A DNA stretch of 42,244 nt. It comes from an uncultured Saprospirales bacterium. Its GTDB lineage: Bacteria > Bacteroidota > Bacteroidia > Chitinophagales > Saprospiraceae. A program made the translations under genes and the position numbers. Positions 13,867 to 39,237 of the stretch are shown in pieces. The stretch spans positions 1-42,244 of the forward strand of contig CALMIR010000029.1 of NCBI GenBank assembly GCA_937864265.1, in the 5' to 3' direction. Below the pieces are notes generated by a model. That model ran no database searches. It was given only the letters and a program-made list of their open reading frames with translations, and was not told the origin of the DNA. Positions within the stretch are counted from its first letter, which is position 1. Each line of letters begins with the position of its first letter.

Positions 13867-13889
13867 AATAAAATTGATACCTTTGTGTC

Positions 13890-17869: not shown

Positions 17870-17880
17870 AGCAAGTACCC

Positions 17881-20335: not shown

Positions 20336-20602
20336 GCCTCGAATGAGCATCGAAGATGCTCCCTTCGAGCTGTATTTAAGCTGACGCGCTTAAAGATAGC
20401 AAGTCAACGTCTTTCCAAAGGGAAAGTGCTCTGGGGAGGTGAAAGGCCTCCTCACCGTCACCGAAGCGCGGTTGCGCAAGCGGGGTTTTTGGAATACTAC
20501 CTCCCCGTTAAGTCCCGCGACGCACAGCCACCACCCATGCCAGCACGTTCACCAAGAAACGATAAGTTGTTCTTTGAACCGCGAAGTACGTGATCCGTAC
20601 GC
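20336..20602. repeat. 267-bp direct repeat, copy 1 (perfectly identical to 38902..39168); GC-rich, hairpin-dense, non-coding
   Basis: Identity was read directly, from cctcgaatgagcatcgaagatgctcc through gtgatccgtacgct. Nested hairpins: ctcgaa-[gagcatc gaa gatgctc]-ttcgag; tatttaagc/gcttaaagata; ctttcc aaa ggaaag; ggagg tgaaagg cctcc; and a 14-bp bulged stem cgaagtacg..cgtacGCttcg at the 3' end. The flanks are similar but diverged. Confidence 0.85.
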
Positions 20603-20672
20603 TTCGTGGTGGGAGCGGGATAAGAGCAGCTGACTGGCTGGTTTTAGGCTACTTGCTTAGCGGTTTTTCTAC

Positions 20673-21404
20673 TCAAATGCTATCTAATAGTTCAATTTCA
20701 GGCATTTCGTCCCATGTCTTGCCTTCCAATAATCGCCCTGTTTTCTTTTTATTTGTCCCACCCCATTGTTTGAAAAAGAAGGCTACGTTAGCATCTAAAC
20801 ATTGATTTTTTATATCTGTTACCCATTCTTCTTTCATAGGCCTAGGTTTTCGTCCACTTTCTCCACCAACTATTACCCAATCAATTCCTTTTAAGTTCAT
20901 ATTCGGTATCGCTCCAATCAACGGCTCACAAGAAAGGAACTTAACCCTTGCTCCGGTCTCACGAAGCAGGTCAATTCTCTTAGTTACTTTATTATTTTCG
21001 ACTGAAACCCCCATCCAAATATTGTGTGCCCACTCTAACCAACCTTCGCTGTCATAAAATCTTAATACGTCTGCCCTTTTGGTCAGAACCTGAAAAACGT
21101 GTTGTGGATTGTCCTTCATTACTTTAAATACTTTTCTTATAAAGTCGATAGGCACGTCTTTATGAAACAAGTCACTCATTGAGTTTACAAAAACAACCTT
21201 CGGTTTTTTCCATGAATAAGGTGTTCTTAACTCGTCTTCGTGGATGGTAATGTCAAAGTTGTTTTTATATTTTTCAACTCCCATTGCTTGCAAACGCTTT
21301 GACATAATCTCGGCATAGCAGAATTTACAACCAGCCGATATTTTATCGCAACCCGTAGTTGGATTCCAAGTCATTTCTGTCCATTCTATGCTTGAATGTG
21401 CCAT
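20673..21404 (-). CDS. Phage Gp37/Gp68-family protein (DUF5131; three-Cys, radical-SAM-like)
   Basis: The N-terminal [32 protein letters not shown] Cys cluster and the overall ~240-aa layout match the Gp37/Gp68 family. Sits 11 bp downstream of its partner gene. Confidence 0.7.
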
Positions 21405-21415
21405 ATTTTGTTCAT

Positions 21416-22531
21416 TTATTTGAAAGTGATAATGATGTCATCCCCCAAAGTTCCCTTTTTAGGCGGTTTACCTTTAGGAGAAATTGCGTCAATTGAATTT
21501 TCCTCATATAATTCCTTTAACACGTCTTTGTAATTTTTCTTAATGTAAGGGGTATCAACATTATGAAGTCTATAAATATCTTTCATTCTCACTGTTTCCC
21601 CGCGATAACGATGTATTAAATTTTCTTTTAAATCATCAAGTGGCCTAGAAAGTTGAAATAACAGTGTTTGCTTTGGAAGTGAATCTGCGGGGTTATACTC
21701 AAAAGAGGGTACTCCTTGCTCGTTACTACTACTTTCCTTTGCCATAATATCCTTCATTATTTCATAACCAAGGAAGTTTTTACTTACAAAGATTAGATGA
21801 TGGCTCGTTCTTTCACCGCTGTCATTTTTAAACCTAAATGGAAGAACGAAATTGGCTCCCAATTCTTTCAATGCTTGGCATAGTTCCTCAATAATTAACA
21901 TTTCTCTTTGCATAGGGTTCGCGTTCGACAACTTTAACCTTAACCGATAACATCTCTCCTTTCCAAACAATGAATTCATGTGAGAAGTGACCATTTTATT
22001 ATTTAACCCCATATTTATTCGATTGTAGTTGAAGAAAAAAATCGCATCACATCTCCAGTCCTTCAAAACTGAATTTACAAGCCTCAAAGATAAACCCTTA
22101 TAACCCCAAGGGTCAACAAAAAATAGAGTGGGAATCAAGTTCATCTGCTCAAATTGTGTGACTATATTTTCCCCTACTTCTTCATTCCATACATCGGGAT
22201 AATATACCAATTCGTTGATATTGGGTATTTCTGATATGGCTCCAGACAATGATTTCGAGTTTTCGGTATCCTTATCATTAAAAATAGTTACAAGCCTTTC
22301 TTTTAAGTCTGGATTGGAGAGGGCATAGTTAAGGATTTTTAAGGGGGTAGATTGGGCACCATCTCGGTATCTACCTGGCCCAGCGAAAAGATCAATATAG
22401 GCTATTTTTTGCGCATATTGAGGGTGTTTTTTTTGCGTATTTATTATTACATTAGCCCAAACGCTAAAATATTTGGCCACAATAGTGGATTTAACCAATG
22501 ACTGCTCCCTTTGTTCGTTAAAAAATGACAT
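21416..22531 (-). CDS. tcmP: Three-Cys-motif partner protein TcmP-like (partner of DUF5131)
   Basis: The N-terminal region ([17 protein letters not shown]...[11 protein letters not shown]) matches the conserved TcmP start. Its adjacency and co-orientation with a DUF5131 gene is the defining context of this family. Confidence 0.6.
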
Positions 22532-22859
22532 ATATTAAGATGCTTTTGTGATTTTTTAATCACCGCTAACATCTACTCATCCGAACTAAAGTTCGCCTTT
22601 TGAAACCCATCAAATGATCCAAAGTCCTTTGTACCCTCTGGATGGTGCTGTCGCTTACACGCGTGTAGCGTTCCGTCGTTCTTATAAAAAAGGGGAAAAA
22701 TTTGGAGATGCATATACTGGCATTTTGGGTCACTTGACAAAAATAATCCCATTGTACCAAAATAGCAAACAATAAAGCAAGAAAAAAATGTTTGCCATGA
22801 TAAAAGCGCTTGCAGGCCGAAGCATGCCAAATATTATAGCTTCGCCCCTGTTTGCTTGT

Positions 22860-22900
22860 ATCCCGCGTCCAATGCGGCATTCTAGCATTGGACGCGGGAT
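22860..22900. other. 16-bp perfect GC-rich inverted repeat (atcccgcgtccaatgc / gcattggacgcgggat) with 9-nt loop
   Basis: Seen directly. Lies ~50 bp past the stop of the minus-strand aquaporin gene. No clean U-tract on either strand. Confidence 0.4.
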
Positions 22901-22948
22901 GCCTGGCGTTTAGGGTTAAGCCCTTAGTGTTGCAGGCAGGCTTCTTTT

Positions 22949-23590
22949 TTATTCTTTTTCTTTCATTAAATTCCATGTCAAACTTGCCAATATCGCCCCG
23001 ATTATCGGAGCGATTATGTAAATCCATAATTCGGAAATATTCCCCGAAACTATCGCAGGAGAAATTGACCTTGCAGGGTTCATTGAAGCTCCTGTAATCG
23101 GTCCCGCAAACATGGCTTCCAACATAACAATAGCCCCGACCGCAAACCCCGTAAATTGATTGACGGACTTGTTTTGGCTGACGAACAGAATGACAACCAT
23201 CAATAAATAGGTCAGAATAATCTCTAAAATGAATGATTGTTGCCAATTCCCACTTGGATGTGTCGCCCCCAAATTTTCATGTTCTGAAAAAAGGAATTTT
23301 AATAGCCCCGATGCTAAAAATGCACCCAATAATTGTGCAATGATATATCCCAATAAATTCTTTTTCTCAAATCTGCCCGTAACAGAAAAAGCTATCGAAA
23401 CGGCAGGATTGATATGTGCCCCCGAAATATTCCCAAATGTATAAATCATCACAGTTACTATCAATCCAAAAGTTATAGCAATGCCAACGTGGCTCAGCGT
23501 TCCGTTGGTGATATCGTTAATCACAATTGCACCCGTACCACAAAATACAAGGGCAAATGTTCCAATCAACTCAGCGATATACTTCTTCAT
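22949..23590 (-). CDS. MIP-family channel (aquaporin/aquaglyceroporin)
   Basis: Two NPA boxes (NPAVSIAF and NPARS), six-helix layout, ~213 aa. Confidence 0.8.
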   Translation of the reverse strand: MKKYIAELIGTFALVFCGTGAIVINDITNGTLSHVGIAITFGLIVTVMIYTFGNISGAHINPAVSIAFSVTGRFEKKNLLGYIIAQLLGAFLASGLLKFLFSEHENLGATHPSGNWQQSFILEIILTYLLMVVILFVSQNKSVNQFTGFAVGAIVMLEAMFAGPITGASMNPARSISPAIVSGNISELWIYIIAPIIGAILASLTWNLMKEKE

Positions 23591-24270
23591 ACGATTACCC
23601 GACTAATAACAAACAACATTTCCCTTCCAATCTGTCTTATCCTTTCATCATATTTTGCGGTTTCGAGTTCCGTTCCGTCAAATTCCTTTGGGTCGTCAAA
23701 TGGCAAGGATAATCTAAAATCACAACCAAGCACAAAGGGGCATCCTTCATCTGCCTCCGAACAGACCATAACGGCAGCAAATTTTTCTTTTGGGTTGGGT
23801 TCGTCTTCGTATTTTTTGGAAAATGCTTGGTAAGGTTTCATTCCATCTTTCCAACTTATTTGATAAATCGGGTTTTCTGATTCTTCTTCTCTTGCCGAAA
23901 TATTAAAGCCAATTCTTTGGAATGCTTTTACTGCTCTGATATTAAATGCAGTAGTTTCCGTTCCTCCCGAAAAGGTCTGTATTTCAGGTATTTGATAATA
24001 TTCAGCTCCAACTGCCAACCAAATCTGTCCGATATGACTTCTTCTCGAATTGTGGGTACAAATCACCACTATTTTCGGTGTTTGCCCTTCTTTGATTTTA
24101 TTGGAAATGTAGTTGCTGAGTAGGGAAAGTTTGTCCTTCCTTTCCTTTGGGATTATTCCAAATTCCCCTTCAAGTTCTTTGCAAAACCTTTCGATTTCCC
24201 CATTCAGGGTCACTTCATCTATCTTCATGCTATCTTTTATTGAGTCAAAAAATCGAACCCGCAATTTCAA
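23587..24270 (-). CDS. Arsenate reductase-like LMW phosphatase (thioredoxin-type ArsC/LMW-PTP fold) with ~60-aa N-terminal extension
   Basis: P-loop CTHNSRRS (CX5R-S) and a downstream Cys pair (VCSEADEGC) like thioredoxin-coupled ArsC. Its stop overlaps the aquaporin start (ATGA), which suggests an ars-like operon. Confidence 0.6.
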   Translation of the reverse strand: MKLRVRFFDSIKDSMKIDEVTLNGEIERFCKELEGEFGIIPKERKDKLSLLSNYISNKIKEGQTPKIVVICTHNSRRSHIGQIWLAVGAEYYQIPEIQTFSGGTETTAFNIRAVKAFQRIGFNISAREEESENPIYQISWKDGMKPYQAFSKKYEDEPNPKEKFAAVMVCSEADEGCPFVLGCDFRLSLPFDDPKEFDGTELETAKYDERIRQIGREMLFVISRVIV

Positions 24271-24432
24271 GATATTTCCATAACTCGTTTATTTATTCGT
24301 ATTAAGTTTGATTTAATTTTTCTTCTTAAGTGCTGCTGTTTACTGAGTTTGCCCTTGTGATTGTGATTTAACCATCATAGGTAGAGCTGGGGCTGATGAA
24401 GAGCGCCCCATATTATTTAAAATCGCAAAATC

Positions 24433-24467
24433 GATGTTCAATTCACCTGCCAATATGTTCAATTGAC
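24433..24467 (+). promoter_or_regulatory. Candidate LytTR-type operator: direct repeats ATGTTCAATTCAC / ATGTTCAATTGAC phased 21 bp apart (copy 1 of a 35-bp element)
   Basis: The 35-mer gatgttcaattcacctgccaatatgttcaattgac is identical to 26674..26708. It lies in the divergent region between the arsC-like gene (minus) and the M43 protease gene (plus), ~77 bp upstream of the latter. Confidence 0.35.
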
Positions 24468-24544
24468 TTTGATCGTCGCTTCTATAGTCTTTTAACCCAA
24501 TTACATTTGCGCTGAAAAGAATTTGGTATCTAAATGTACTCAAC

Positions 24545-25444
24545 ATGAAATTAAATTATTTCCCCTTACTAATACTTGCCTTGGCATTTTTTGTTGTGAG
24601 CTGTAGTAAGGAAGATGATGAACCAACCGAGCCCTTTATTTATCGAATTCCTGTGGTTGTACACGTGGTACATAATGGTGAACCAGTAGGCACAGGCCCC
24701 AACATTTCGCAAGCGCAAATACAATCACAAATTGAAGTGCTTAATGAAGACTTCAGAAGAATCTCAGGTACCAATGGATTTAATTCCAATGGTGTAGACA
24801 CTCAGATTGAATTTTACCTGGCCACCACAGATCCTGATGGAAATACACTTCCAGAACCTGGTATTCATCGTTACGATGGTGGTATTCCAATATGGCCAAC
24901 TGGGTTTTTCACTTCAGTAGATTCTCAACTAAAACCAGCTACCTTTTGGGATCCAAATCGATATTTTAATATCTGGACGGTGAATTTTGGAGGATTTGTA
25001 GGTAGAAATTTATTGGGCTACGCACAGTTTCCTTCCAACTCAGGCTTACTTGGATTAGATGCGAATGGAGGGGATGCAGAAACCGATGGGGTTGTGATTG
25101 GCTACAAATATTTTGGCAGTGCCGAGAAAGGCAATTTCCCCGATTTACACAACACCTATAATTTAGGAAGAACCACCACACATGAGGTTGGGCACTGGTT
25201 AGGCTTACGCCATATTTGGGGCGATGGTGATTGCACGGTAGACGATTTTTGTAATGATACACCAACCTCCGACGAACCCAATTACTCCTGCGAAATGCAC
25301 ATCTCCTGCGGCTCTCAGGATATGATTGAGAACTATATGGATTACACCGAAGATCAGTGCATGAGTTTATTTACTCAAGACCAAAAAGAACGGATGTTTC
25401 AAGTATTGGAAAATAGCGTACGCAGAAACACATTGTACAACTAA
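24545..25444 (+). CDS. M43 (pappalysin/cytophagalysin-type) zinc metalloprotease lipoprotein
   Basis: Lipobox (LAFFVVSCSK). Extended zinc motif HEVGHWLGLRHIW (HEXXHXXGXXH). The size fits the M43B family. Confidence 0.75.
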   Translation: MKLNYFPLLILALAFFVVSCSKEDDEPTEPFIYRIPVVVHVVHNGEPVGTGPNISQAQIQSQIEVLNEDFRRISGTNGFNSNGVDTQIEFYLATTDPDGNTLPEPGIHRYDGGIPIWPTGFFTSVDSQLKPATFWDPNRYFNIWTVNFGGFVGRNLLGYAQFPSNSGLLGLDANGGDAETDGVVIGYKYFGSAEKGNFPDLHNTYNLGRTTTHEVGHWLGLRHIWGDGDCTVDDFCNDTPTSDEPNYSCEMHISCGSQDMIENYMDYTEDQCMSLFTQDQKERMFQVLENSVRRNTLYN

Positions 25445-25462
25445 CTTTAAAAAAACGAAAAA

Positions 25463-26197
25463 ATGAAAAATTTTAATCTTCAACTACTTCTGGCATTAGC
25501 GTTATTAGCATTTTTTCCCAGCTGTTCAAAGGATGATGATACCGATGATAACGTAGTAATTACTGTTAACGATGCTGCGGAATTAGTGGCAGCATCTATG
25601 GCAATCGCAACCTATGGCGCCGTAAGTAACATGAACTACGTTTCTGACCAGATAGTGGACATACTCGATTGTAATGAATCTGAAAGTGAAACCAGATCGG
25701 ATACAGAAACATCCATTAACGGAGAAGTGATGGTATCTTTCACCATTTCTGAAAGCTATTCATTAGCTTGTTCAGGTGGGGAAGAAGAAATCAACTATAT
25801 TTTTACAGCCGACCAAACGACAACCTCCAACCCCTTAGATACAGACCATAGCATAAGTGGAAACTGGATAATTTCAGGAGCAGAGTCAACATCTTCTGTT
25901 TTAACCTATAACGGAAGCTATTCCAGAGGCGGTGAATGGATATACAACAATGCAGATGACCATACAGACAATACCACAACTTCTTTTGTTTATAAAGATG
26001 TAAAAGCGAACAAAGACGACGGGGTGATTTTTGAAGGCACTTCAACTTTTGCGCTCAATGGCACCAGTACCGTATATGACCCATACTCTTATGAAGGGGA
26101 TATTGTTTTTCAAGCGGGCAATATTTGCGTTGCAACTTTTGCAACAGGTGAGCAATATAAAATTGATTTAAACACAGGTGATGTAACCCCACTATAA
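25463..26197 (+). CDS. Hypothetical Ser/Thr/Asp-rich lipoprotein
   Basis: Lipobox FFPSCSK. No recognisable domain. Confidence 0.45.
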   Translation: MKNFNLQLLLALALLAFFPSCSKDDDTDDNVVITVNDAAELVAASMAIATYGAVSNMNYVSDQIVDILDCNESESETRSDTETSINGEVMVSFTISESYSLACSGGEEEINYIFTADQTTTSNPLDTDHSISGNWIISGAESTSSVLTYNGSYSRGGEWIYNNADDHTDNTTTSFVYKDVKANKDDGVIFEGTSTFALNGTSTVYDPYSYEGDIVFQAGNICVATFATGEQYKIDLNTGDVTPL

Positions 26198-26218
26198 AAA
26201 AATTAAAATCGGTGAAAA

Positions 26219-26599
26219 ATGAAAAATGTAACAACTTTATTGCTATCCACTTTCTTGGTGTTTGGAATGATGTGTACCGTTTCAGCACAAGAAATATTTT
26301 CAGCCGAGGAAAAAGTGCAGGTTATTCAAAACGTTGATGAGTATATTTATAACCTAAACTTATCCGAACGTGACAAACCCGAATTTAGGTTCATCATCGA
26401 AGATTTCTTTATCGGTCTTTCGGCATTGAGGGAAACAGAATTTTCAATGGATGCTAAGAAGAAAATTGTAAGGACTTTAGCAAAGGATAGAGATAAAAGG
26501 GTCAAAGAAGTCCTAAGCTCCGATCAATACAAAGTATATAAGGCTCGTATAAAAGAGCAGAGAGGTAAACTCGTAGAGTTTATGAAAAAGCAATCATAA
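26219..26599 (+). CDS. Hypothetical small secreted protein
   Basis: Signal peptide (TLLLSTFLVFGMMCTVSAQE) and a Lys-rich C-terminal half. No known motif. Confidence 0.4.
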   Translation: MKNVTTLLLSTFLVFGMMCTVSAQEIFSAEEKVQVIQNVDEYIYNLNLSERDKPEFRFIIEDFFIGLSALRETEFSMDAKKKIVRTLAKDRDKRVKEVLSSDQYKVYKARIKEQRGKLVEFMKKQS

Positions 26600-26621
26600 C
26601 TTGCTTTAACCAACGGCTAAT

Positions 26622-26652
26622 AACGGGGGAATCTGGTAAAGATTCCCCCGTT
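26622..26652 (+). terminator. Putative intrinsic terminator: 12-bp stem aacgggggaatc / gattcccccgtt with 7-nt loop
   Basis: A perfect hairpin seen directly, 23 bp after the stop of 26219..26599. The 3' tail is only moderately T-rich (gcatttcaaaatt). Confidence 0.4.
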
Positions 26653-26673
26653 GCATTTCAAAATTGCAGAACG

Positions 26674-26708
26674 GATGTTCAATTCACCTGCCAATATGTT
26701 CAATTGAC
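26674..26708 (+). promoter_or_regulatory. Candidate LytTR-type operator, copy 2 of the 35-bp phased direct-repeat element
   Basis: Identical 35-mer to 24433..24467, ~73 bp upstream of the DUF2147 gene start (26781), in the same orientation. Confidence 0.35.
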
Positions 26709-26780
26709 CAAAATTTAGAGGGGATTATTCTATTCACCTTAATAGTTTTGGGCTGTTTATTCACAATTAATTAAAGAAAT

Positions 26781-27131
26781 ATGAAAATTTTAATGTTAAC
26801 CATGTTGAGCCTAATGATGTACTCATTATCTTATTCCCAAACCATAGCGGGCGTTTGGAGTACAGGAAAAGAAAATACGACCATTCAAGTCCTTCAGGAG
26901 GGGGGTGAATGGGTAGGTAAGATAAAATCGTCCGATAATGATCAGGCTACTATTGGCAAAGTGATCCTGAAAGATTTGGAAAAACAAGGAAATATCTGGA
27001 CAGGTAAATTGTATGTCATTAAAAAACAAAAATGGGTTGATGTGAAGATTAGTCCGTTTGAATCCAAACTAGAGTTGCTCGTATCGGCAGGTTCTTCCAA
27101 AAAGAAAGTCGAATGGAAAAAAGTTAAGTAG
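26781..27131 (+). CDS. DUF2147-family small secreted protein
   Basis: Signal peptide, then GVWSTGKENTTIQV...GEWVGKI, typical of DUF2147 (G.W...... then W.GKI). Confidence 0.5.
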   Translation: MKILMLTMLSLMMYSLSYSQTIAGVWSTGKENTTIQVLQEGGEWVGKIKSSDNDQATIGKVILKDLEKQGNIWTGKLYVIKKQKWVDVKISPFESKLELLVSAGSSKKKVEWKKVK

Positions 27132-27154
27132 TTTATTTTTTTAAACACATCGCA

Positions 27155-27997
27155 GTGAAACTCAAAAAAGTAATAATCACCATTCTTGGCATTCTTCTTT
27201 TGATAGTTGCCTTGGGTGTCATCTTTCTGCCTCAGATCTTAAAGGGGCTTGGTTATCATCCAGATTACGAAAAAGTGCCTTACCATTTCAAGGACAAAAA
27301 AGCGCTGATTATCACGACAAGTCACGATGTGTTAGGCGAGACAGGGAAAGCCACTGGGGTGTATCCTTCTGAAATGACCATTCCGTATTATGAATTCTTA
27401 GATGCAGGGCTTGATGTGGACATTGCGAGCATTAAAGGAGGAGAAATACCTCTAGATCCTATTGGGTTAAACTATTACATGAAATCACATGCCGACAAAC
27501 GCTATCTAAAAGATGAGGTGGCATTAGACAAAACTAAAAATTCTCTGAGCGTAGCGGATGTAGATTTTTTGGATTACGACATCATTTTTATGGCCGGGGG
27601 CTGGGGGGCTTCTTATGATTTAGGAAGTAGCGAAATTCTTGGCCAGAAAATAACAGACGCTAATACGGAAGGTATTTTGCTTGGCTCCGTTTGTCATGGT
27701 TCTTTGGGCTTCCTTATGGCAAAAGATACTACCGGATTGCCTCTGGTACAGGGGAAAAAGATGACAGGTGTAACCGATAAACAAGTTAAAGAATTAAACA
27801 TAAGTATTACTCCAATGCACCCGGAAACGGAGTTGAAAAAACATGGAGCAATCTTCCAAGCCAATACCGGTATTAGAGATTTTCTACAGACGCTTACCGT
27901 TGTAGATGGAAATATCGTCACAGGACAAAATCAAAACTCATCAGGAGAAGCGGCTCAAACATTACTAGCGCGGCTAAATGAAAGAAGCCGTGAATAG
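27155..27997 (+). CDS. DJ-1/PfpI-family (type 1 glutamine amidotransferase-like) protein with N-terminal membrane anchor
   Basis: GTG start. Nucleophile elbow LLGSVCHGSLGFL (Cys-His). The N-terminal helix is hydrophobic. Confidence 0.65.
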   Translation: MKLKKVIITILGILLLIVALGVIFLPQILKGLGYHPDYEKVPYHFKDKKALIITTSHDVLGETGKATGVYPSEMTIPYYEFLDAGLDVDIASIKGGEIPLDPIGLNYYMKSHADKRYLKDEVALDKTKNSLSVADVDFLDYDIIFMAGGWGASYDLGSSEILGQKITDANTEGILLGSVCHGSLGFLMAKDTTGLPLVQGKKMTGVTDKQVKELNISITPMHPETELKKHGAIFQANTGIRDFLQTLTVVDGNIVTGQNQNSSGEAAQTLLARLNERSRE

Positions 27998-29257: not shown

Positions 29258-29263
29258 TTTTTC

Positions 29264-29584: not shown

Positions 29585-29614
29585 AACATTTAAACAAAAA
29601 AACAATTCAATTAT

Positions 29615-30340: not shown

Positions 30341-30351
30341 CGACACTAAAA

Positions 30352-32691
30352 ATGGGATACATGAACTTAAATAGCATCTTGGTATGTGTTTTTATACTTT
30401 TTTTGAATATCGTCCAAGCACAGCGGTCGTTGCAAGTAGCTATTATCTCCGATGCCAATGACGACGACAATCATTTTTTTGAGGAAACGATAAAGTCAGA
30501 AATCAATACCTTGTTGGGATCGCGCTTTGAGGCGAATTACGTGGAAATATATACAGGGGGTAATATTGAAAAATTAAAGCAAGCTGTAGAAACCATTTAC
30601 CGCGAGCGAAAGGTTGACGTTGTCATAGGCTCCAGGATTGTGACCAGCAAATGGCTCAAAGACCTAGGGCAATATCCTATTCCTACCATAGCTTCCATCC
30701 AATTAACCGATGAGTTACTCGAAGCTGAAGCCAGCGCAAATAGAACCAGCGATATAAATAATTTTACGTACATCAATTCTCCGTTCAACATTATTGATGG
30801 AATTGAAAAATTAACACAAATCTGCCATTGCCAAGAAATTGCTGTTTTAACGCCTCCAGCTTTTTTAGAAATGGGTCTTAATGCCCGTTATCTTGAGCCG
30901 GGTAATTCCATCCAACTCAACTGGATAGAGCTGGATGCCGATCTAATAAATTCGGTCTCTAGAATCCCTGATGAGGTTGGCGCGGTGTACCTATTATCTC
31001 CCATGGCTGACTACAAAATGGAAGATTTACAATTGTTTTTTAAAAAATTACAGCAGCAAAACCTGCCAAGCTTCACACTTTTGGATGCTCCCCTTCTCCA
31101 ATTAGGTGCTTATGCGGCTTACGCTTCAAGTGAAAATTTAATGAAAATACCTAGGCGAATAGCCTTGAATGTTGAGAGGATCATGGAAGGGCAAAATGCT
31201 AAAGACCTTCCAGTGAATATGGAAACTTTTTCACAGCAGCTTCACATCAACATGGAAGCGGTAAAAAAAACCAACCTTTACCCCGATTGGAATCTGTTGG
31301 ATGAAGCCATTTTAATCTATATCAATCGACCCTACACCACGCGGGTGATCAATTTAAAATCAGCTATTGCTGAAGGTATGGAAAACAATTTGGGCTATCA
31401 AATTGCTGAAAAGGAGGCTGAAATTAGTAGTAAAGGAATAGGTTTGGCGAGAAGCAATTACTTGCCTCAATTGAATGTGGAATCCACTGGTTATTTTTTG
31501 GACTCTAACAGTGTTAATAACTCTTTCGGTACACAAGGAGAATTCAATTGGACGGCGGGCGCATCCTTTTCACAATTGATTCTGTCAGAGCCTGCAATGG
31601 CGAATATCGCTATCCAAAAATTACTTTACGAAAGTGACCTAAAAGCCAAAGACCAATCCGAATTAGATGTAATACTGGAAACAGCGCAACGGTTTTTTAA
31701 TATTTTGCAAATAAAAGCGGTTGCCGATTTGCAAAATGACAATATACAAGCCATCAACCAAAATTTAACCATAGCCACCGACAAGCAAAAAGTGGGTTAC
31801 AGCGGATTAAGCGATGTGCATCGATGGAAGACCGAGTTGAATTTAGCAAAGACGGATTTAAATGCAACAAATGCGCAGCTTCAAGCAGCATCTTATGCAT
31901 TAAATGAGAGTTTGAATCGTCCGATAGGCGAAAGTTTTGCTATTTCAGACGATGAAAGTATCAATAGTTTAATTGAAGAATTGGATGATATTTTCTCCGA
32001 ATTGATTCCAAACGAGGCAGTACTCAATCTTTTTGCCGATTTTATGGTTCGGGAAGCATTTGAGAACCTTCCCGAAGTAAAACAAATCGATCTGGCCATA
32101 GCTGCGCAGGAGCGTTTGCTAAAGTCTAATAAACGTGCGTTTTATATACCTACTATTGGAGTTGGCGCCCAATACAACTACCCAATAGAAACGGTAAATC
32201 CAGGGGAGCCGCCGCCCATACCGGGCTTTGAGACGGAAATTAATCCCAATTGGAATGTTGGAGTCAATGTCTCCTATCCCATTTTTAATGGATTGGCAAG
32301 AAAGCAGCAGAAAGAACAAACCAAAATAGGTTTGCTACAACTGCAAGACAATAAAAAGGAGGTCAACAACCTGCTCGAGTTGCAAGTGAGGGCAAATGTT
32401 CAAACGGTAAGTGCCTCATTCAATAACATTCGACTAACTGAAAACGCAGCAACAGAAGCAAATAAAAACGTGGCCATTGTGCGAGACTTTTACAAATCCG
32501 GGCAAGTAGATATCATTACCCTGGTAGATGCTCAGAACACCTTATTGGGCGCCCAAATAAATGCTGCGAATGCTAAATACCAATTTATGATTGACTATTT
32601 CGCCTTACAGCGTTCTGTGGGCTACTATTTGTTTTTAGACACAGAAGATAACAAACAAGCGTTTCTCCAGAGATTCGTGAATTTTAAATAA
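30352..32691 (+). CDS. TolC-like outer membrane efflux factor fused to an N-terminal PF04392-like (ABC_sub_bind) periplasmic binding domain
   Basis: The C-terminal ~430 aa show duplicated outer-membrane-efflux-protein repeats. The N-terminal ~320 aa follow the ABC_sub_bind pattern (IPTIAS..., GAVYLLSP, LPSFTL, LGAYAAYASSENLMKIPRRIALNVERIMEGQNAKDLPVNMETF..LHINMEAVKK). Confidence 0.7.
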   Translation: MGYMNLNSILVCVFILFLNIVQAQRSLQVAIISDANDDDNHFFEETIKSEINTLLGSRFEANYVEIYTGGNIEKLKQAVETIYRERKVDVVIGSRIVTSKWLKDLGQYPIPTIASIQLTDELLEAEASANRTSDINNFTYINSPFNIIDGIEKLTQICHCQEIAVLTPPAFLEMGLNARYLEPGNSIQLNWIELDADLINSVSRIPDEVGAVYLLSPMADYKMEDLQLFFKKLQQQNLPSFTLLDAPLLQLGAYAAYASSENLMKIPRRIALNVERIMEGQNAKDLPVNMETFSQQLHINMEAVKKTNLYPDWNLLDEAILIYINRPYTTRVINLKSAIAEGMENNLGYQIAEKEAEISSKGIGLARSNYLPQLNVESTGYFLDSNSVNNSFGTQGEFNWTAGASFSQLILSEPAMANIAIQKLLYESDLKAKDQSELDVILETAQRFFNILQIKAVADLQNDNIQAINQNLTIATDKQKVGYSGLSDVHRWKTELNLAKTDLNATNAQLQAASYALNESLNRPIGESFAISDDESINSLIEELDDIFSELIPNEAVLNLFADFMVREAFENLPEVKQIDLAIAAQERLLKSNKRAFYIPTIGVGAQYNYPIETVNPGEPPPIPGFETEINPNWNVGVNVSYPIFNGLARKQQKEQTKIGLLQLQDNKKEVNNLLELQVRANVQTVSASFNNIRLTENAATEANKNVAIVRDFYKSGQVDIITLVDAQNTLLGAQINAANAKYQFMIDYFALQRSVGYYLFLDTEDNKQAFLQRFVNFK

Positions 32692-32698
32692 ACAAAAT

Positions 32699-33868
32699 AT
32701 GAGACCATACTTAGTTTTCCTGTCTATGATTATGCTTGTTTCTTGTGGCAATGAACAACAAGAACAGGGGGAGAGCGTCCGACCTGTGAAATACGCCAAA
32801 GTGTTAAAACAAACAGGCCAAATAACCCACTCCTTCTCAGGTGAGGTCAAAGCTAAGGACGAAGTGGAGCTCAGCTTTAAGGTATCAGGCACTTTGAGTA
32901 CATTGAATGTAAAGTTCGGAGAAAGGGTCAGCAAAGGTCAGTTGATTGCCTCCATAGACCCTACGGACTATTCCATACAATCCAATCAAGCCGTATCGCA
33001 AAAGGAAGGTTCTTTAGCCAATAAGCAAAGTGCCGAAGCCAATACCAAAGCAGCCGAGGCGCAATTGATAAATGCACGAGAAACCTATCAGAGGGTTGCC
33101 AAATTGTATGAAAACAATAGTGTGGCTTTAAGCGAATACCAACAGGCAAAAGCAGCCTTAGATGCAGCACAAGCACAATACGATGCGGCCGTTTCTCAAG
33201 TGAAGGCAGCCGGCACGCAGATTACTTCCGCCGATCAGCAAGTACAAGCGGCCAACAACCAAGTGGGCTATACGCGCTTGTATGCGCCTATAAATGGAGT
33301 AATTACGGATGTGAAGGTAGATGAAAACGAAGTGGTAAATGCAGGCGCTGGCATTGCCATCTTGAGTTCCACAAACCAACTGCTAGTGGAAGTCGGGATA
33401 CCAGAAAGCATCATTAATAAATTGTACGTCGGCCAGCAGGCTGCGGTTACATTACCCTCTGTATCCGACGAACCCCTTGAAGCTGTGATTGATGAATTGG
33501 CCTATGCCTCAGGACGCGCTACTACCTATCCTGTCAGACTCAAATTGATAAATACATTAGATGACATTCGTCCGGGTATGGTGGCAGAAGTGGAATTTGT
33601 CATTGAAAACAAAACAGTTACACCTGCAAAGAACTTGTTAATCACCCCCATTAAAGCCATAGCCAGTGGTACAGAAGGAAACTATGTCTATCGATTGATT
33701 CCCGAAAACAAAGATGGATTATACAAAGCCGAAAAGGTGCGTGTGAAGCTTGGTAGTATAATCAATCAGGGATATGTCATAGAAGAGGGGCTAGAGGAAG
33801 GTGATCTTGTCGCAGTAGCCGGGCTCAATTTCCTATATGATGGCAAAGTTGTGAAACTCTTAAAATAG
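32699..33868 (+). CDS. RND efflux periplasmic adaptor subunit (HlyD/MFP family) lipoprotein
   Basis: Lipobox LVSCGN, a long alpha-hairpin (Q/A-rich) region, and beta-barrel/MP domains. Adjacent to the RND permease. Confidence 0.8.
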   Translation: MRPYLVFLSMIMLVSCGNEQQEQGESVRPVKYAKVLKQTGQITHSFSGEVKAKDEVELSFKVSGTLSTLNVKFGERVSKGQLIASIDPTDYSIQSNQAVSQKEGSLANKQSAEANTKAAEAQLINARETYQRVAKLYENNSVALSEYQQAKAALDAAQAQYDAAVSQVKAAGTQITSADQQVQAANNQVGYTRLYAPINGVITDVKVDENEVVNAGAGIAILSSTNQLLVEVGIPESIINKLYVGQQAAVTLPSVSDEPLEAVIDELAYASGRATTYPVRLKLINTLDDIRPGMVAEVEFVIENKTVTPAKNLLITPIKAIASGTEGNYVYRLIPENKDGLYKAEKVRVKLGSIINQGYVIEEGLEEGDLVAVAGLNFLYDGKVVKLLK

Positions 33869-33873
33869 GCTTT

Positions 33874-36800
33874 ATGAATATTACCAAACTGGCATTACAA
33901 TACAACAGAGTTACCCTTCTTGCCTTGCTTGTCATCATCGCATTAGGCTTGATGCAGTATAAAAATTTGTCGAGAGATAGTATGCCTCCTTTCGTAGTGC
34001 GGACAGCCACGATAATAACTCAATTCCCAGGCGCAAGTCCAGAAAGAGTGGAATCGCTAATTTCTGACAAAATAGAGAAAGTTTTACAAGAAATACCCGA
34101 AGTAAAAACAATTCAAAGCACCAGTAGAACAGGCGTTTCAATAATAAAAATTTCGGTTGACGACAATATTTCTGCAAGCGAGCTGCAAGTTGTTTGGGAT
34201 TTGGCAAGAAGAAAAATTGAAAACATAAGAAATGATTTACCCGATGGTATTTTTGGCCCTAACTTAGATGACGAAGATGTAGGTGTGGTTTATGGTATTG
34301 TCGTTGGATTGGAGGCGGATGGTTTTGAGTATAGCGAGCTAAAAGATTATGCCGACGATTTAAGAAATGAACTCATAGCGCTGGACGATGCGGCGAAAGT
34401 AGTGATTGGGGGAGCCGTAGAAGAGCGTATTTATGTAGCGTACAACGATGCAAAACTCGCCCAACTTGGCCTCACGGCAACTCAGGTGCAAAACATCATT
34501 TCTTACAGTAATATTATCATCCCTTCAGGCCAGGTAAACTTAGGCGAAGAGCGTATTATTTTAGAATCATCAGGAAATTTCGAATCGGTAGAGGCTATAC
34601 AAAACTTGGTTATCCCTTTAAATAGACAAGGTGAAACCATCCGATTGGGGGAGATTGCCAACGTAGGCCGAGGCTATGTTCAGCCGTATGAGTCTATTGT
34701 TCGCGTAAATGGTAACCCTGCCCTTTCCTTGTCGATTTCGCTAAAAGAAGGAGCGAACTTGATCGACTTAGGCAAAGATGTGGACCAATTGATACAAGAT
34801 TACAACGAGAATAATTTGCCACTCGGTATCGAAGCAGTTCGGATTGCCTCTCAGGATTTAGAAGTACAAAAAAAACTCGATGTTTTTGTTGGTAACTTAT
34901 TCCAAAGTATTGTCATTGTTTTGTTGGTGATATTACTCATACTGGGCTGGAGAGCCGGTGTGATCATTGCCAGTTTAATTCCTGGCACCATTATCCTGAC
35001 CTTCCTGCTAATGGGTATTTTTGGAGTAGGTCTTAATCAGGTGACCCTTGCGTCTCTGATTATGGCATTAGGGCTTTTGGTGGACAATGGGATTGTAATG
35101 GTGGAAGCCCTGATTGAAAAGCTGCAAAAAGGACAAAGTCGATTTCAAGCGGCAGTCAATTCAGCCAGTGAATTTTTCATTCCTTTGCTCATATCGTCTT
35201 TGACTACATGTGCGGCTTTCCTTGCTTTCTATTTGGCGGATGGCGCCTTGGGCGAGATGATGGGGAATATCTTTTTGGTCATTACGATGGCGCTACTTTC
35301 ATCGCTGCTATTTGCGTTTACCATCGTACCACTTTTCGCCAATTATTTTCTAAAAGTAAAGCAGGGCGAACACGAACATCAAACCATATTTGACCGATTC
35401 AGAGGCAAGTACAATGACTTTTTGAATTGGGCATTGAATCGTCCCGTGATTACTTTGATAACCATTGTCCTATTGTTCGTTGTGGCATTGGTTGGCTTTG
35501 GATATGTGCCCAGTATCTTTATGCCTCCGAGCGATAGAAATTTGGTCGTCGTCGATATTAATTTTCCTTTGGGTACGAAAATAGAAACGACAGATGGGCA
35601 AGTCGCATTAATGGATCGGTATATACGAGATAGTCTTGAGGTGGACAATGCTAGCCAAGAAGGTATAGTCAATTGGTCATCCTATATCGGTAGAGGGCCG
35701 GAAGCCTACGACCTGGGTTACTTCCCGGGAGAACCAAATTCGTCCTATGCCCATATGTTGCTGAATACTACTTCCAATGAAGCCAATGATATAGTCATTG
35801 AGCGATTGCAAAAATTTGTGGGGCAAAACATTTTTGATGCGGAAGTGAAAATCAGTCGCCTGGTGGGATCAGGCGGAGCCGAAGCACCCATTGAAATCCG
35901 GGTATCCGGCGAGAATCCGGATGAACTCTTCAAAATTGCAGAAAGTATCAAAACCCGCTTGTATCAAACGGCAGGTGTAATGAATATTAGCGATGATTGG
36001 GGGCCGCGGAGCAAGAAACTTTATATAGATATTGATGACGATAAACTCGCCAAAGCGGGACTTACCAACCAAGATGTTGCCCTTTCGTTGCTAACTTCCC
36101 TCAATGGTTTCGAGGTGGGTGAATATAGGGATGAGGATAATACCATCCCAATCACCATGAAGCAAGAAAGTAGTGAGGAAATAGACTACAACGATATACA
36201 AAATCTGAATGTTTATTCTCAAATGTCGGGTACAAGCAGCCCTTTGTCACAGGTTGCCGAAATCAGAATACCCTGGCAATATTCCAAAATTTTAAGACGA
36301 AATCTCAAACGCAACCTCACCATACAGGCAAGCGTTCAAGAAGGCTATCTTGCGAGTGATATTATGGAAAACGATATTCGCCCGATGATTGAAGAAGAAG
36401 CAAGTACATGGGAAAAGGGATACGATTATGAATTTGGAGGAGATGCCGAAGGAAGCAATGATGCAATAGGAGCCGTAATGTTGAACTTACCGTTGTCTTT
36501 TTTCATCATTATCCTTTTGCTCACCATTCAGTTCAATTCCATGCGAAAGACGGGTATCATTTTTATGACGATTCCTTTGGCGGTCATAGGGGTAACGGCA
36601 GGACTATTATTAGCGGGGTCATTTTTTAGTTTCACGGCTTTTCTAGGTATTATTTCCTTAGCCGGAATCATCATCAATGATGCCATTGTTCTGGTAGATA
36701 AAATTGGTACAGAGCTTAACGAAGGCAATGGGCTATTAGAGAGTATAAAATCGGCCGCCAATCATCGGTTTAGCCCCATACTACTTACCACGCTGACCAC

Positions 36801-36969
36801 TTCTTGCGGTATGGTGCCCCTCTGGACAGGTGGCGGCGAACTGTGGTCTCCCATGGCAATAACGATGATTTTTGGTTTGCTTTTCGCTACTTTAATATTG
36901 TTAATCTTTGTGCCCGTTGTTTACTCATTGCTATTTAAAATAAAAAAAACAACAAATAATGCAGATTAA
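33874..36969 (+). CDS. RND efflux transporter permease (AcrB/HAE1-like)
   Basis: 1031 aa with the 12-TM / two-large-periplasmic-loop architecture. Conserved AcrB-like TM motifs (e.g. LASLIMALGLLVDNGIV, SLAGIIINDAIVLVD). Confidence 0.9.
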   Translation: MNITKLALQYNRVTLLALLVIIALGLMQYKNLSRDSMPPFVVRTATIITQFPGASPERVESLISDKIEKVLQEIPEVKTIQSTSRTGVSIIKISVDDNISASELQVVWDLARRKIENIRNDLPDGIFGPNLDDEDVGVVYGIVVGLEADGFEYSELKDYADDLRNELIALDDAAKVVIGGAVEERIYVAYNDAKLAQLGLTATQVQNIISYSNIIIPSGQVNLGEERIILESSGNFESVEAIQNLVIPLNRQGETIRLGEIANVGRGYVQPYESIVRVNGNPALSLSISLKEGANLIDLGKDVDQLIQDYNENNLPLGIEAVRIASQDLEVQKKLDVFVGNLFQSIVIVLLVILLILGWRAGVIIASLIPGTIILTFLLMGIFGVGLNQVTLASLIMALGLLVDNGIVMVEALIEKLQKGQSRFQAAVNSASEFFIPLLISSLTTCAAFLAFYLADGALGEMMGNIFLVITMALLSSLLFAFTIVPLFANYFLKVKQGEHEHQTIFDRFRGKYNDFLNWALNRPVITLITIVLLFVVALVGFGYVPSIFMPPSDRNLVVVDINFPLGTKIETTDGQVALMDRYIRDSLEVDNASQEGIVNWSSYIGRGPEAYDLGYFPGEPNSSYAHMLLNTTSNEANDIVIERLQKFVGQNIFDAEVKISRLVGSGGAEAPIEIRVSGENPDELFKIAESIKTRLYQTAGVMNISDDWGPRSKKLYIDIDDDKLAKAGLTNQDVALSLLTSLNGFEVGEYRDEDNTIPITMKQESSEEIDYNDIQNLNVYSQMSGTSSPLSQVAEIRIPWQYSKILRRNLKRNLTIQASVQEGYLASDIMENDIRPMIEEEASTWEKGYDYEFGGDAEGSNDAIGAVMLNLPLSFFIIILLLTIQFNSMRKTGIIFMTIPLAVIGVTAGLLLAGSFFSFTAFLGIISLAGIIINDAIVLVDKIGTELNEGNGLLESIKSAANHRFSPILLTTLTTSCGMVPLWTGGGELWSPMAITMIFGLLFATLILLIFVPVVYSLLFKIKKTTNNAD

Positions 36970-36989
36970 ATACTAAAACAAAAATTTCA

Positions 36990-37973
36990 ATGAGTAGCTT
37001 GTTTCAACGATACAATATAGTAGTACCCTTAATACTAGCCGTATTTCTGCCGTTGCTGGGGCTGTTTACTGATGGTTTATCGCCACCCCACAAGGTTTTT
37101 TTTCAAAAATGGACAGTATCATTTCTTATGATATTCTTGATGTGGTATAGTTTCTTATCGATAAACACCCATAGTAAAAGCGTTTGGAGCTTCAAGAATA
37201 TAGCAACTATTGCATTATTAGTACTGGTTATTACAATAGTTTTCAACCTATATGGGATCAGTGAAGAACAACAGTTTAACCGGGTTTTACCAGTTCGAAT
37301 ATTATTTACTGCCATAATCATTTTTATGGTTCAAAAAGGTTTGCTAACCCAGGAAAGACTGGCCGATCTGAGGGTAGATAAAGAGCGACTCCAAACGGAA
37401 AACCTCAGAATCCAGTTAAAAGAATTGCGGAACCAGATGGATCCTCATTTTTTCTTTAATTCCCTTAGTACACTTCGAGCGATGGTAAGGCAAAACCATG
37501 TGAATTCCGAGCAATTCATCATTGGATTATCAGCCTTTTACCGACAAATGCTAAAGATACAAGAAGAGGGTACCCTGCCACTTTCAAAAGAGATAGAAAT
37601 AATAAAATCCTATATTTTCATCATGAGTAACAGAAATGAAAATGCCTTATTGATAGACTTTGAAGCAATAGATGAAGCTTATTACAACCATCAAATTCCA
37701 ACATTAGCCTTACAAAGCGTTGTCGAAAACTGCATAAAGCACAACGCTATTTCCGAAAAAATGCCCTTAGAAATTGGCATTCGTACTACAAATGATGCTT
37801 ACATAGAGGTAAAAAACAGGATTCAACCCAAACTTTCAACACCGGAATCATCGGGAATGGGACTTGAATTACTAAAAAAGAGATACAAGCTAATGGGTAT
37901 TACCGATGGTGTTATGGTTTCAATTTCCGAGAAAGAATTTATAGTGAAATTAAAACTCATCTCGCCCCAATGA
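36990..37973 (+). CDS. LytS/YehU-type sensor histidine kinase (membrane, no extracytoplasmic sensor domain)
   Basis: ~5 TM helices, then the His_kinase (PF06580) motif QMDPHFFFNSLSTLRAMV, an N-box ENCIKHN and a G-box GMGLELL. Confidence 0.8.
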   Translation: MSSLFQRYNIVVPLILAVFLPLLGLFTDGLSPPHKVFFQKWTVSFLMIFLMWYSFLSINTHSKSVWSFKNIATIALLVLVITIVFNLYGISEEQQFNRVLPVRILFTAIIIFMVQKGLLTQERLADLRVDKERLQTENLRIQLKELRNQMDPHFFFNSLSTLRAMVRQNHVNSEQFIIGLSAFYRQMLKIQEEGTLPLSKEIEIIKSYIFIMSNRNENALLIDFEAIDEAYYNHQIPTLALQSVVENCIKHNAISEKMPLEIGIRTTNDAYIEVKNRIQPKLSTPESSGMGLELLKKRYKLMGITDGVMVSISEKEFIVKLKLISPQ

Positions 37974-38713
37974 ATGTACTTATCGTAGAAGACGAATTAC
38001 ACACCGCAAAATTACTTCAGGAGATTATTGAAGAATCAAGTGATTTCAAAGTATTGGAAATAATAGGTGCTGTGGTGGATACGGTGCAGTATCTTATGAA
38101 GCACCAATCGAACTTAGACTTAATGTTCTTTGACATTCAATTAACGGATGGGTTAAGTTTTGAAATTTTTAATCATATCGATATTGTAACACCTATTATA
38201 TTTTGCACCGCATATGATGACTACGCATTGAATGCCATCAAAAACAATGGAATAGACTATGTGCTAAAACCGTTTAAAGATGAAGAAATTCACAGTGCTT
38301 TAAAAAAGTATCAGCGCTTAAAAAAGCAACTTCAGGAATCGAATAGACCTACTCGCTTTCAAACGAATACACAGATACAAAGAAATTTCCTAGCCCAATA
38401 TCGAGAAAAGACAATCATCATAAAATCAGCCGAAGTTGCTTTGTTTTTCACCAGCCATGATGTAGTTTATCTTATGACCTATAAAGGAGAAAAGTATCCC
38501 TTATTCAAATCGTTGGACTACATAGAATCTGTTTGTGACACCGAGAATTTCTATCGTATAAACCGACAGATGATTATCCATCGTGATGCCATCGTATCTT
38601 TTCAAGACTATTTCAATCGAAAGCTTATATTAGATTTATACGTAAGTACCGAAGAGCAAGCCATCGTCAGTAGATTAAAAGTGTCAGCATTTAAGAACTG
38701 GTTAAAGAAATAG
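37970..38713 (+). CDS. LytTR-family response regulator (receiver + LytTR DNA-binding domain)
   Basis: Receiver domain (MNVLIVEDE, FFDIQLTDG, a Lys near DYVLKPF) and a C-terminal LytTR-like segment. 4-bp overlap with the kinase gene. Confidence 0.8.
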   Translation: MNVLIVEDELHTAKLLQEIIEESSDFKVLEIIGAVVDTVQYLMKHQSNLDLMFFDIQLTDGLSFEIFNHIDIVTPIIFCTAYDDYALNAIKNNGIDYVLKPFKDEEIHSALKKYQRLKKQLQESNRPTRFQTNTQIQRNFLAQYREKTIIIKSAEVALFFTSHDVVYLMTYKGEKYPLFKSLDYIESVCDTENFYRINRQMIIHRDAIVSFQDYFNRKLILDLYVSTEEQAIVSRLKVSAFKNWLKK

Positions 38714-38901
38714 GAATGATTTGAGCAATCTAGCTATAAATAGAACTATTAACCATATCGAGCTAATTAAATTTTGACAAAAAGCTTTATGGGTGTAGCA
38801 TTTATATTGATCGCCCTTGCACCCGCAGGGTTTCAGCCGACGTGTTGGCTACACGCAGGTGGCGCGTTTAGTGACACTTGCCGTTGTAGCCGTTGTGTGT
38901 A

Positions 38902-39168
38902 CCTCGAATGAGCATCGAAGATGCTCCCTTCGAGCTGTATTTAAGCTGACGCGCTTAAAGATAGCAAGTCAACGTCTTTCCAAAGGGAAAGTGCTCTGGG
39001 GAGGTGAAAGGCCTCCTCACCGTCACCGAAGCGCGGTTGCGCAAGCGGGGTTTTTGGAATACTACCTCCCCGTTAAGTCCCGCGACGCACAGCCACCACC
39101 CATGCCAGCACGTTCACCAAGAAACGATAAGTTGTTCTTTGAACCGCGAAGTACGTGATCCGTACGCT
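38902..39168. repeat. 267-bp direct repeat, copy 2 (identical to 20336..20602)
   Basis: Perfect identity over 267 bp by direct comparison. Flanks are diverged but weakly similar (e.g. cgttgtag on the 5' side, gtggtg.gag.ggg on the 3' side). Sits in a convergent intergenic region. Confidence 0.85.
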
Positions 39169-39237
39169 GGGTGGTGTGAGAGGGCTGCGGTGGGGCATCT
39201 TGGCTCACCGTTCCCTACTCGATTGGCAGCAGTCTTT

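Follow-up and report, generated by a model that had tools for sequence, protein, structure and literature searches.

Two short elements without reading frames, probably derived from group IIC introns, account for a 267-nt direct repeat in a Saprospiraceae contig

We analyzed a 42,244-nt stretch of DNA (contig CALMIR010000029.1, hereafter the window) from a metagenome-assembled genome (MAG) of the family Saprospiraceae, in which a 267-nt sequence occurs twice in direct orientation. An earlier note on the window, made from the sequence alone, had proposed that the two copies could be attL/attR-like boundaries of an accessory block of about 18.3 kb. The repeat is real and exact: a string identity test placed the copies at an offset of 18565 (Table 1), while the earlier interval for copy 1, 20336-20602, lay one base too far to the left (G20336 and A38901 differ, and T20603 and T39168 agree). 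The recurrence of an exact 267-mer within 42 kb cannot be due to chance. When the pair was extended in a repeat search of the window, the copies shared 294 nt at 97% identity (20326-20619 and 38891-39184). Using nhmmer, we detected weaker similarity between them over about 315-350 nt and found no third copy in the window.

The exact copies are separated by 18,298 bp (20604-38901). The genes of this block had been listed correctly, and include a DUF5131 gene with its GMT-wHTH partner as well as MIP, M43, DJ-1, MBL, K+ channel, OEP/RND, and LytS/LytTR genes. As had also been stated, no integrase, recombinase, or transposase gene was found in the block, nor was a reverse transcriptase gene. The block had been described as AT-rich, but this is not distinctive, as its composition (36-46% GC) matches that of the DNA to its right (32-39% GC). 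The repeat stretch itself has a GC content of 54-63%, compared with 43% for the window, and is hairpin-rich on both strands. Each exact copy sits within a non-coding, plus-strand element of about 326 nt, and the genes adjoining copy 1 and copy 2 are unrelated to each other.

The repeat does not depend on one assembler, because contigs of two further assemblies break at it. A MEGAHIT contig from another sample (k141_43879, 18,580 nt) consists of the inter-repeat block with exactly 141 nt of repeat on either side, and an NCBI MAG contig ends 55 nt into copy 1. The MEGAHIT branch points, 141 nt inside the ends, argue that the copies genuinely have in common at least the outermost 141 nt at both ends of the core. 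Both copies were spanned, in the same order, in at least two assemblies. The true identity of the copies could be slightly below 100%, as assemblers may collapse near-identical repeats.

We compared the surroundings of copy 2 with those in other Saprospiraceae. Orthologues of the adjoining 387-aa gene (86-93% amino-acid identity) were found in five contigs (L009, L010, L011, L014, and L015), with different neighbours on both sides in all of them. In each, an imperfect palindrome lies 12-20 nt past the stop codon. The sequence between gene and palindrome (...TTGGCAGCAGTC...) is conserved with the window in four of the five; L010, which has a different hairpin and a diverged spacer, was not counted as an empty site. 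The four empty sites read ...TAGCC-nTTGT|TGGCAGCAGTC... and carry no element. In the window, the conserved hairpin (38847-38891) and the gene-proximal sequence are both present, 327 nt apart. When the alignment was made with the element (38897-39223) removed, the window was colinear with L011 (86% identity) and L009 (83%), and the restored junction reads GCC(G/A)TTGT|TGGCAGCAG. Because this deletion restores colinearity with the empty sites, copy 2 is a 327-nt insertion and not the boundary of an 18-kb block. It is not part of the variable region: a conserved gene adjoins it on one side and that gene's own conserved hairpin on the other. The 387-aa gene has different neighbours in every genome and an attC-like hairpin always after it, and behaves like a mobile gene cassette.

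On the left, orthologues of the flanking Reg_prop gene (81% identity; L005 and L006) share no neighbours with the window and lack the element. The idea that the same two flanking genes surround a variable hotspot was dropped, as the Reg_prop gene of L011 is only a 28% paralogue.

The insertion site of copy 2 corresponds closely to the target of a known class of retroelement. Introns of group IIC-attC target the bottom strand of attC sites, where they insert at TTGT/T a few nucleotides past a stem-loop and opposite to the cassette gene (PMC7923331, PMC3001079). At copy 2, the stem is followed by TTGT (38893-38896, corresponding to intron-binding site 1, IBS1), and T39224 is the first base of the 3' exon (IBS3). 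The stem-loop ends 5 nt before the TTGT/T junction, at the same distance as in Kl.pn.I3, an intron downstream of blaIMP-4 on the Klebsiella plasmid pIMP-1495 that we used as a reference. Copy 2 thus has the stem-loop, the TTGT/T junction, the bottom-strand position, and the antisense orientation of an attC-targeting insertion, while copy 1, whose first 3'-exon base is T20658, has them only in part.

The hairpin beside copy 2 is one member of a family. A palindrome profile matched seven times in L011 (9.9 kb), three times in L010, and once in the window. On the gene-sense strand, the hairpins read ..(Y)AACAAT-GGCTA...TAGCC-nAACC-GTTGGGC/GTTGTGC... By eye, an attC-like layout, with an imperfect palindrome between an R''-like AAC box and an R'-like GTTRRRY box, can be made out at copy 2 and at ten sites in L009-L011. 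The seven attC-like hairpins of L011 (2596-8780) each directly follow one of a row of co-oriented ORFs (open reading frames), which encode a PIN toxin, Fic, Mrr-like, and Uma2 proteins and hypothetical proteins; further attC-like hairpins lie at L010:2054-6469 and L009:5886-5956. No integron integrase was found on the L011 contig. Judging from this layout, the L011 array resembles a cluster of attC sites lacking integron integrases (CALIN) or an integron cassette array in Saprospiraceae.

The 3' parts of both elements resemble the catalytic end of a group II intron. Kl.pn.I3 is 1,947 nt long, lies antisense to its gene, starts 5 nt after a stem-loop (...TTTGT|GTACG), and has its 3' end (...GGCTACCCGAT|T) at a distance of 7 nt from the stop codon of that gene. 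Copy 2 begins TTGT|GTGTA and ends ...CCCTACTCGAT|T, and copy 1 ends ...GGCTACTTGCT|T. In Smith-Waterman comparisons of the last 90 nt of the elements with the last 85 nt of Kl.pn.I3, copy 2 scored 55 and copy 1 scored 36; dinucleotide shuffles scored 19 +/- 3.6, and 0 of 500 reached the observed score of either copy. In a manual register, the last ~80 nt of both copies fit the RF00029 consensus structure as displayed on Kl.pn.I3. Compared with the consensus boundaries 5'-GUGYG ... AY-3', copy 2 (GUGUA ... AU) matches four of five bases at the 5' end and has the AY end.

Domain V of class C introns is distinguished by a CGC triad in place of AGC and by a distal stem that is 2 bp shorter than in classes IIA and IIB (PMC1702495). 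The elements have an 8-bp basal helix starting from CCGC, then a single unpaired U, a distal stem of 3 bp, an unpaired ACG, and a UG linker, and the last two features match the RF00029 consensus. The CGC triad with its G.U pair, the short distal stem, and a 3'-strand bulge (2-3 nt in class C) are those of class C, although in copy 2 the basal helix contains two mismatches. The 3' basal strand of copy 2, CUGGGUGG, would pair perfectly with CCGCCCAG, which is the strand type of Kl.pn.I3. Domain VI could be recognized in both copies: 4 + 2 pairs enclose a UA bulge whose A lies at position -7, in line with the 7-8 nt from the 3' splice site that are typical of such introns. The two copies differ here by compensatory changes (UAAG/CUUG and GC/GC in copy 1, UGAG/CUCG and GG/CC in copy 2), and the register of domain VI differs between them in the MAFFT alignment.

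The elements do not appear to encode a protein. No ORF conserved between the two copies was found. An 85-codon open frame across the core was rejected: it is preceded by a stop, copy 1 offers it no start codon in frame ahead of the core, and its product has no homologue among proteins. Comparison with Kl.pn.I3 shows only a short hairpin in the place of domain IV, which in full-length introns holds the reverse transcriptase ORF. The coordinates of copy 1 were set by analogy, and its 5' boundary is uncertain by about 4 nt, as no empty site fixes it.

Each repeat copy is thus likely to be the core of a ~326-nt, ORF-less relic of a class C, attC-targeting (IIC-attC) group II intron on the plus strand: four empty sites show the insertion at copy 2, the junction there is TTGT/T, the orientation is that of such introns, domains V and VI have class C features, the 3' part resembles that of Kl.pn.I3, and an ORF is lacking. 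We propose that an intron RNA would have reverse-spliced into single-stranded DNA at TTGT/T just past the stem-loop of an attC-like bottom strand, and that a DNA copy would then have been made by a reverse transcriptase supplied in trans, as the element itself has none. Such an insertion would place the element antisense to the neighbouring gene, between its stop codon and the hairpin, and would have happened at two unrelated genes 18.5 kb apart. The 18.3-kb block would then be merely what lies between two insertions. In view of the deviations described in the next paragraph, the elements are best called intron-derived rather than demonstrated ribozymes. Both copies are probably inactive, because each has at least one defect: copy 1 has AUAUG at its 5' end and CU at its 3' end, and copy 2 has a broken domain V. 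The repeats could nevertheless mediate RecA-dependent deletion or duplication of the 18.3 kb between them.

Several observations weigh against an intron origin. Copy 1 lacks the GUGYG and AY ends and has no empty site, and its geometry is less canonical, with GUGU instead of UUGU as IBS1 and a stem-loop that ends 25 nt upstream of the junction instead of 3-11 nt. The Rfam models RF02001 and RF01998 had no match at E <= 10 on either copy, even in short stretches, and domains I-III are therefore not recognizably canonical; the same two models score 134 and 65 bits on Kl.pn.I3. The domain V/VI model RF00029, which scores 47 bits on Kl.pn.I3 (gathering score 40), likewise had no match at E <= 10 in 131-141-nt searches of the copies. 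The 5' 245 nt show only marginal similarity to Kl.pn.I3, with 24 of 500 shuffles doing as well, and apart from this alignment the 245 nt before domain V share with it only a 15-nt match, GAGGUGAAAGnCCUC. To our knowledge, the element is shorter than any class C ribozyme, and the ~245 nt before domain V fall ~110 nt below the smallest IIC ribozymes. No reverse transcriptase domain was found among the window proteins that were scanned or had precomputed Pfam matches. The structure rests on two sequences and one reference, since no other homologue turned up in any collection. Finally, a conversion event between the copies, as proposed below, requires homology that can no longer be seen, and assemblers that collapse near-identical repeats might inflate their identity or create a chimeric domain V.

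The searches for relatives and for known RNAs covered several collections. No relative of the core was found by blastn against plasmids and phages, by exact 22-29-mers in IMG/VR, GTDB species genomes, and JGI metagenomes, or by back-translating the core pseudo-protein into six 8-aa patterns and searching viral, genome, and metagenome collections; no homologue of the core was found among predicted proteins either. Rfam searches of the whole window and of short stretches, at gathering thresholds and at E <= 10, returned only chance matches (sX5, PVT1_3, and DUF805b). Possible resemblances to 16S rRNA (GTTAAGTCCCGC) and to RNase P RNA were not supported by Rfam. A pairing of the 5' and 3' flanks as a closing helix was rejected, as both are G/T-rich.

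The distribution of identity between the copies points to a further event. The exact identity begins at nucleotide 6 of the element and reaches the first two bases of the 3' basal strand in domain V. Beyond this core, the copies differ in their first five bases (AUAUG and GUGUA) and are about 50% identical over their last ~55 nt. We conclude that the copies are old and diverged and that their interior was probably made identical recently by gene conversion from copy 1 to copy 2. This direction is proposed because the tract ends inside domain V, where the helix of copy 2 is mismatched and that of copy 1 is intact. Recent retrotransposition of a single RNA is unlikely, since cDNA synthesis starts at the 3' end and the 3' ends would then match too. 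The suggestion that these are paralogous elements with a recently homogenized core thus holds up well, with the flanks inside the elements homologous but ~50% diverged and the identity ending in a helix that is broken in copy 2. Both copies would already have had the same unusual 5' architecture before homogenization, which suggests that the short form itself had spread.

This last point favours a second possibility, that the 326-nt element is a working mini group II intron and not a dead relic, which we consider unlikely. A compact, non-canonical 5' scaffold of ~245 nt would replace domains I-IV and be joined to a class C domain V/VI, and the element would reverse-splice at stem-loop/TTGT sites, mobilized in trans by a reverse transcriptase encoded elsewhere in the genome. 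If true, it would be the smallest mobile group II element and set a new lower size limit, and it would be invisible to pipelines based on RF00029 or reverse transcriptases.

We weighed four explanations that do not involve introns. It is quite improbable that the elements are a family of free-standing structured small-RNA genes, that is, two non-coding paralogues kept alike by selection and concerted evolution. Their high GC content, their hairpins (folding z-scores of -2.8 to -5.2), and the presence of promoter-like hexamers upstream of copy 2 and T-runs downstream would fit such genes. However, the z-scores are similar on both strands, and the GC-rich DNA upstream belongs to a separate attC-like element, which relatives carry without the core. 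The T-runs were rejected as terminators, since the one at copy 2 belongs to the conserved 3' region of the neighbouring gene and is conserved beside it in relatives that lack the element. The insertion junction and the match to domains V and VI would also be left unexplained.

A non-autonomous DNA transposon, similar to a miniature inverted-repeat transposable element, could also have inserted beside a hairpin, for example one derived from a hairpin-targeting insertion sequence (IS) of the IS110/IS1111 or IS200/IS605 type. IS1111-attC elements and IS110 elements that target repetitive extragenic palindromic (REP) sequences are known precedents. The insertion relative to empty sites, the position beside hairpins, and the lack of an ORF agree with this, and we found neither terminal inverted repeats nor a target-site duplication at the element junctions. 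We nevertheless regard it as very improbable. The two ends lack similar subterminal hairpins (IS200/IS605-like ends were rejected because the hairpins are unrelated). The idea of a bridge or guide RNA was rejected, as no complementarity between element and flank, which a bridge or seek RNA would need, is common to both copies. The exact TTGT/T junction, the domain V/VI architecture, and the similarity to Kl.pn.I3 are specific to group IIC introns.

The interpretation of the earlier note, in which a 267-bp attachment region was duplicated by site-specific integration of an 18.3-kb island, is extremely unlikely in view of these data. The direct repeats do bracket accessory-type genes, and the right-flank gene neighbourhood differs in every relative. 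However, neither an integrase nor a recombinase is encoded in the block, and a search of the window found no tRNA or tmRNA that could serve as a target. In all four relatives with an empty site, the copy-2 site carries zero repeat copies, where an attachment site predicts one. The copy-2 element also lies outside the variable region, the GC content of the block equals that of its right flank, and each copy has its own diverged termini and an intron-type structure; a retroelement fits the position, orientation, and structure. A dispersed element unrelated to island boundaries, which the earlier note itself had set against its proposal, is essentially what was found. An assembly artefact, in which a chimeric metagenomic contig was joined through a collapsed repeat or falsely duplicated, is suggested by the metagenomic (MAG) origin of the window and by short-read assemblers breaking exactly at the repeat, but is hardly credible, as each copy has distinct and self-consistent flanks, the order recurs in at least two assemblies spanning both copies, the breaks fit a genuine repeat with at least two contexts, and GC content and gene orientation are continuous over the junctions.

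Table 1 Coordinates of the repeat copies, the intron-like elements, and their surroundings in the window.
Feature	Position	Strand	Description
Exact repeat, copy 1	20337..20603	+	Homogenized core; begins at element nt 6, ends at base 2 of the 3' basal strand in domain V
Exact repeat, copy 2	38902..39168	+	String identity with copy 1
Intron-like element, copy 1	20332..20657	+	326 nt; 5' AUAUG ... GCUACUUGCU 3'; no ORF; limits by analogy with copy 2 and Kl.pn.I3
Intron-like element, copy 2	38897..39223	+	327 nt; 5' GUGUA ... CCCUACUCGAU 3'; no ORF; limits by empty sites
Short hairpin at domain IV position	20554..20574 (copy 1), 39119-39139 (copy 2)	+	AAGAA-A-CGA UAAG UUG-UUCUU, 21 nt; compare Kl.pn.I3 AUUUAGAA-[ORF]-UUCUAAAU
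Predicted domain V, copy 1	20579..20609	+	Basal helix CCGCGAAG/CUUCGUGG, 8/8 pairs, CGC triad with G.U; distal helix ACG/CGU; loop UGAUC; unpaired ACG
Predicted domain V, copy 2	39144..39174	+	5' strand as copy 1; 3' basal strand CUGGGUGG, giving two mismatches; chimeric helix
Predicted domain VI, copy 1	20621..20655	+	UAAG-A-GC ... GC-UA-CUUG; bulged A 20651, 7 nt from 3' end
Predicted domain VI, copy 2	39177..39221	+	UGAG-A-GG ... CC-UA-CUCG; bulged A 39217, 7 nt from 3' end; element ends AU
5' exon, copy 1	20279..20331	+	Stem-loop 20279-20306, diverged member of the same hairpin family as at copy 2; GTGT (20328-20331) 21 nt later
5' exon, copy 2	38835..38896	+	attC-like imperfect inverted repeat, bottom strand; nhmmer hairpin-family match E = 2e-11; fold; top-strand attC-like boxes
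DUF5131 gene	20673..21404	-	Stop codon 15 nt from copy-1 3' end; element antisense to gene
Cassette-like gene	39238..40401	-	387 aa, no Pfam family; stop codon 14 nt from copy-2 3' end; element parts gene from attC-like site
Stretch between elements	20658..38896	.	18.2 kb; ordinary chromosomal or accessory genes; no mobility genes; no att-site limits

The window contains further features outside the two elements. Within the block, a metallo-beta-lactamase-fold protein (27978-29090, plus strand) has a weak, sub-threshold match to the anti-Pycsar protein Apyc1 (21 bits, cutoff 50). A 52-nt direct repeat (24416-24467 and 26657-26708, 90% identity) lies upstream of the M43 peptidase gene (24545) and of an ORF at 26781 and is probably a shared promoter or operator. 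To the left of copy 1, a direct repeat of 247 nt (13572-13818 and 14845-15091, 96% identity), inside which an NCBI MAG contig breaks, arises from the 3' end of a 1617-aa DUF3686/AAA ATPase gene that is duplicated 1.3 kb downstream, past two small ORFs of 122 aa and of 172 aa, the latter with DUF6575. An intergenic palindrome of ~90 nt (8820-8912, 85-89% complementary) with GTTTCTG/GTTTCAA-type units separates an SPFH/Band-7 gene (6722-8809) from the DUF3686 ATPase gene (8921-13774). Just upstream of an AAA_14/DUF4143 ATPase gene (4471-5697), about 111-120 nt are duplicated in tandem (4155-4265 and 4275-4385, 91%). The regions 6001-14000 and 16001-18500 have a GC content of 50-55% within a background of 33-45%; they hold the SPFH and DUF3686 ATPase genes, and genes for a GMC oxidoreductase and a gluconate-2-dehydrogenase subunit 3. 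This mosaic composition suggests a foreign origin.

The intron-derived elements remove a false lead at this locus, as the repeats mark neither an island nor att sites, and they document retroelements of the group IIC-attC type together with attC-like cassette sites in Saprospiraceae, within the Bacteroidota. ORF-less forms of ~326 nt whose domains I-III cannot be recognized would escape surveys that rely on the reverse transcriptase ORF or on RF00029 (PMC8919778, PMC4424553). In the Leon-Roy model, IIC-attC introns join genes to attC sites and so give rise to new cassettes. With its chimeric domain V, copy 2 would offer a clean natural case in which dispersed copies of an intron have recombined, a step that this model of cassette formation assumes. 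As a weaker corollary of the working-intron reading, an exchange between the two copies, of which one adjoins an attC-like site and the other the TcmP-DUF5131 pair, might represent the first step of the model.

Group IIC-attC introns, ORF-less introns, and intron fragments are already known. What is unusual here is the combination of a ~326-nt length, precise ends, class C domains V and VI, unrecognizable domains I-III, two copies with a recombination scar, and a Bacteroidota host with attC-like arrays. As in integron attC sites and CALINs, the imperfect palindrome of the hairpins is bounded by an R''-like (..AACAAT) and an R'-like (GTTRRRY) box, and in L011 the hairpins come after successive co-oriented ORFs. 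Unlike in integrons, no integron integrase was seen, and the window has one clear and one diverged site instead of an array.

Like the group IIC-attC introns Kl.pn.I3 and S.ma.I2 of Serratia, the element, in particular copy 2, is inserted in antisense orientation at TTGT/T, 5 nt past a stem-loop on the bottom strand of an attC-like site, and separates a gene from that site. Further common features are the domain V with its CGC triad, unpaired A(C/U)G, and basal helix of 8 bp, the bulged A at -7 of domain VI, and the 3' end ...CUACYCGAU|U. The window elements differ from Kl.pn.I3 in length (326-327 nt versus 1,947 nt), in lacking a reverse transcriptase/maturase ORF, with a domain IV that consists of the 21-nt hairpin, and in domains I-III, which Rfam recognizes in Kl.pn.I3 (65-134 bits) but not here. 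They differ from this group also by a pentaloop in domain V, a longer domain VI, and a host from the Saprospiraceae (Bacteroidota) rather than the Proteobacteria.

ORF-less group II introns, which are reported to be rare in bacteria (PMC4424553), likewise have no intron-encoded protein and presumably need a protein supplied in trans by a related intron. However, the described examples retain the full set of six RNA domains and can be picked up in searches for domain V, whereas the window element is missed by RF00029 and has no recognizable domain I. Truncated group II fragments such as H.ha.F1/F2 (PMC7923331) resemble the elements in that domains V and VI are kept and the upstream parts are lost or degenerate. 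Those fragments are cut at the 5' end, whereas copy 2 of the window has precise junctions relative to the empty site and a near-consensus GUGUA start.

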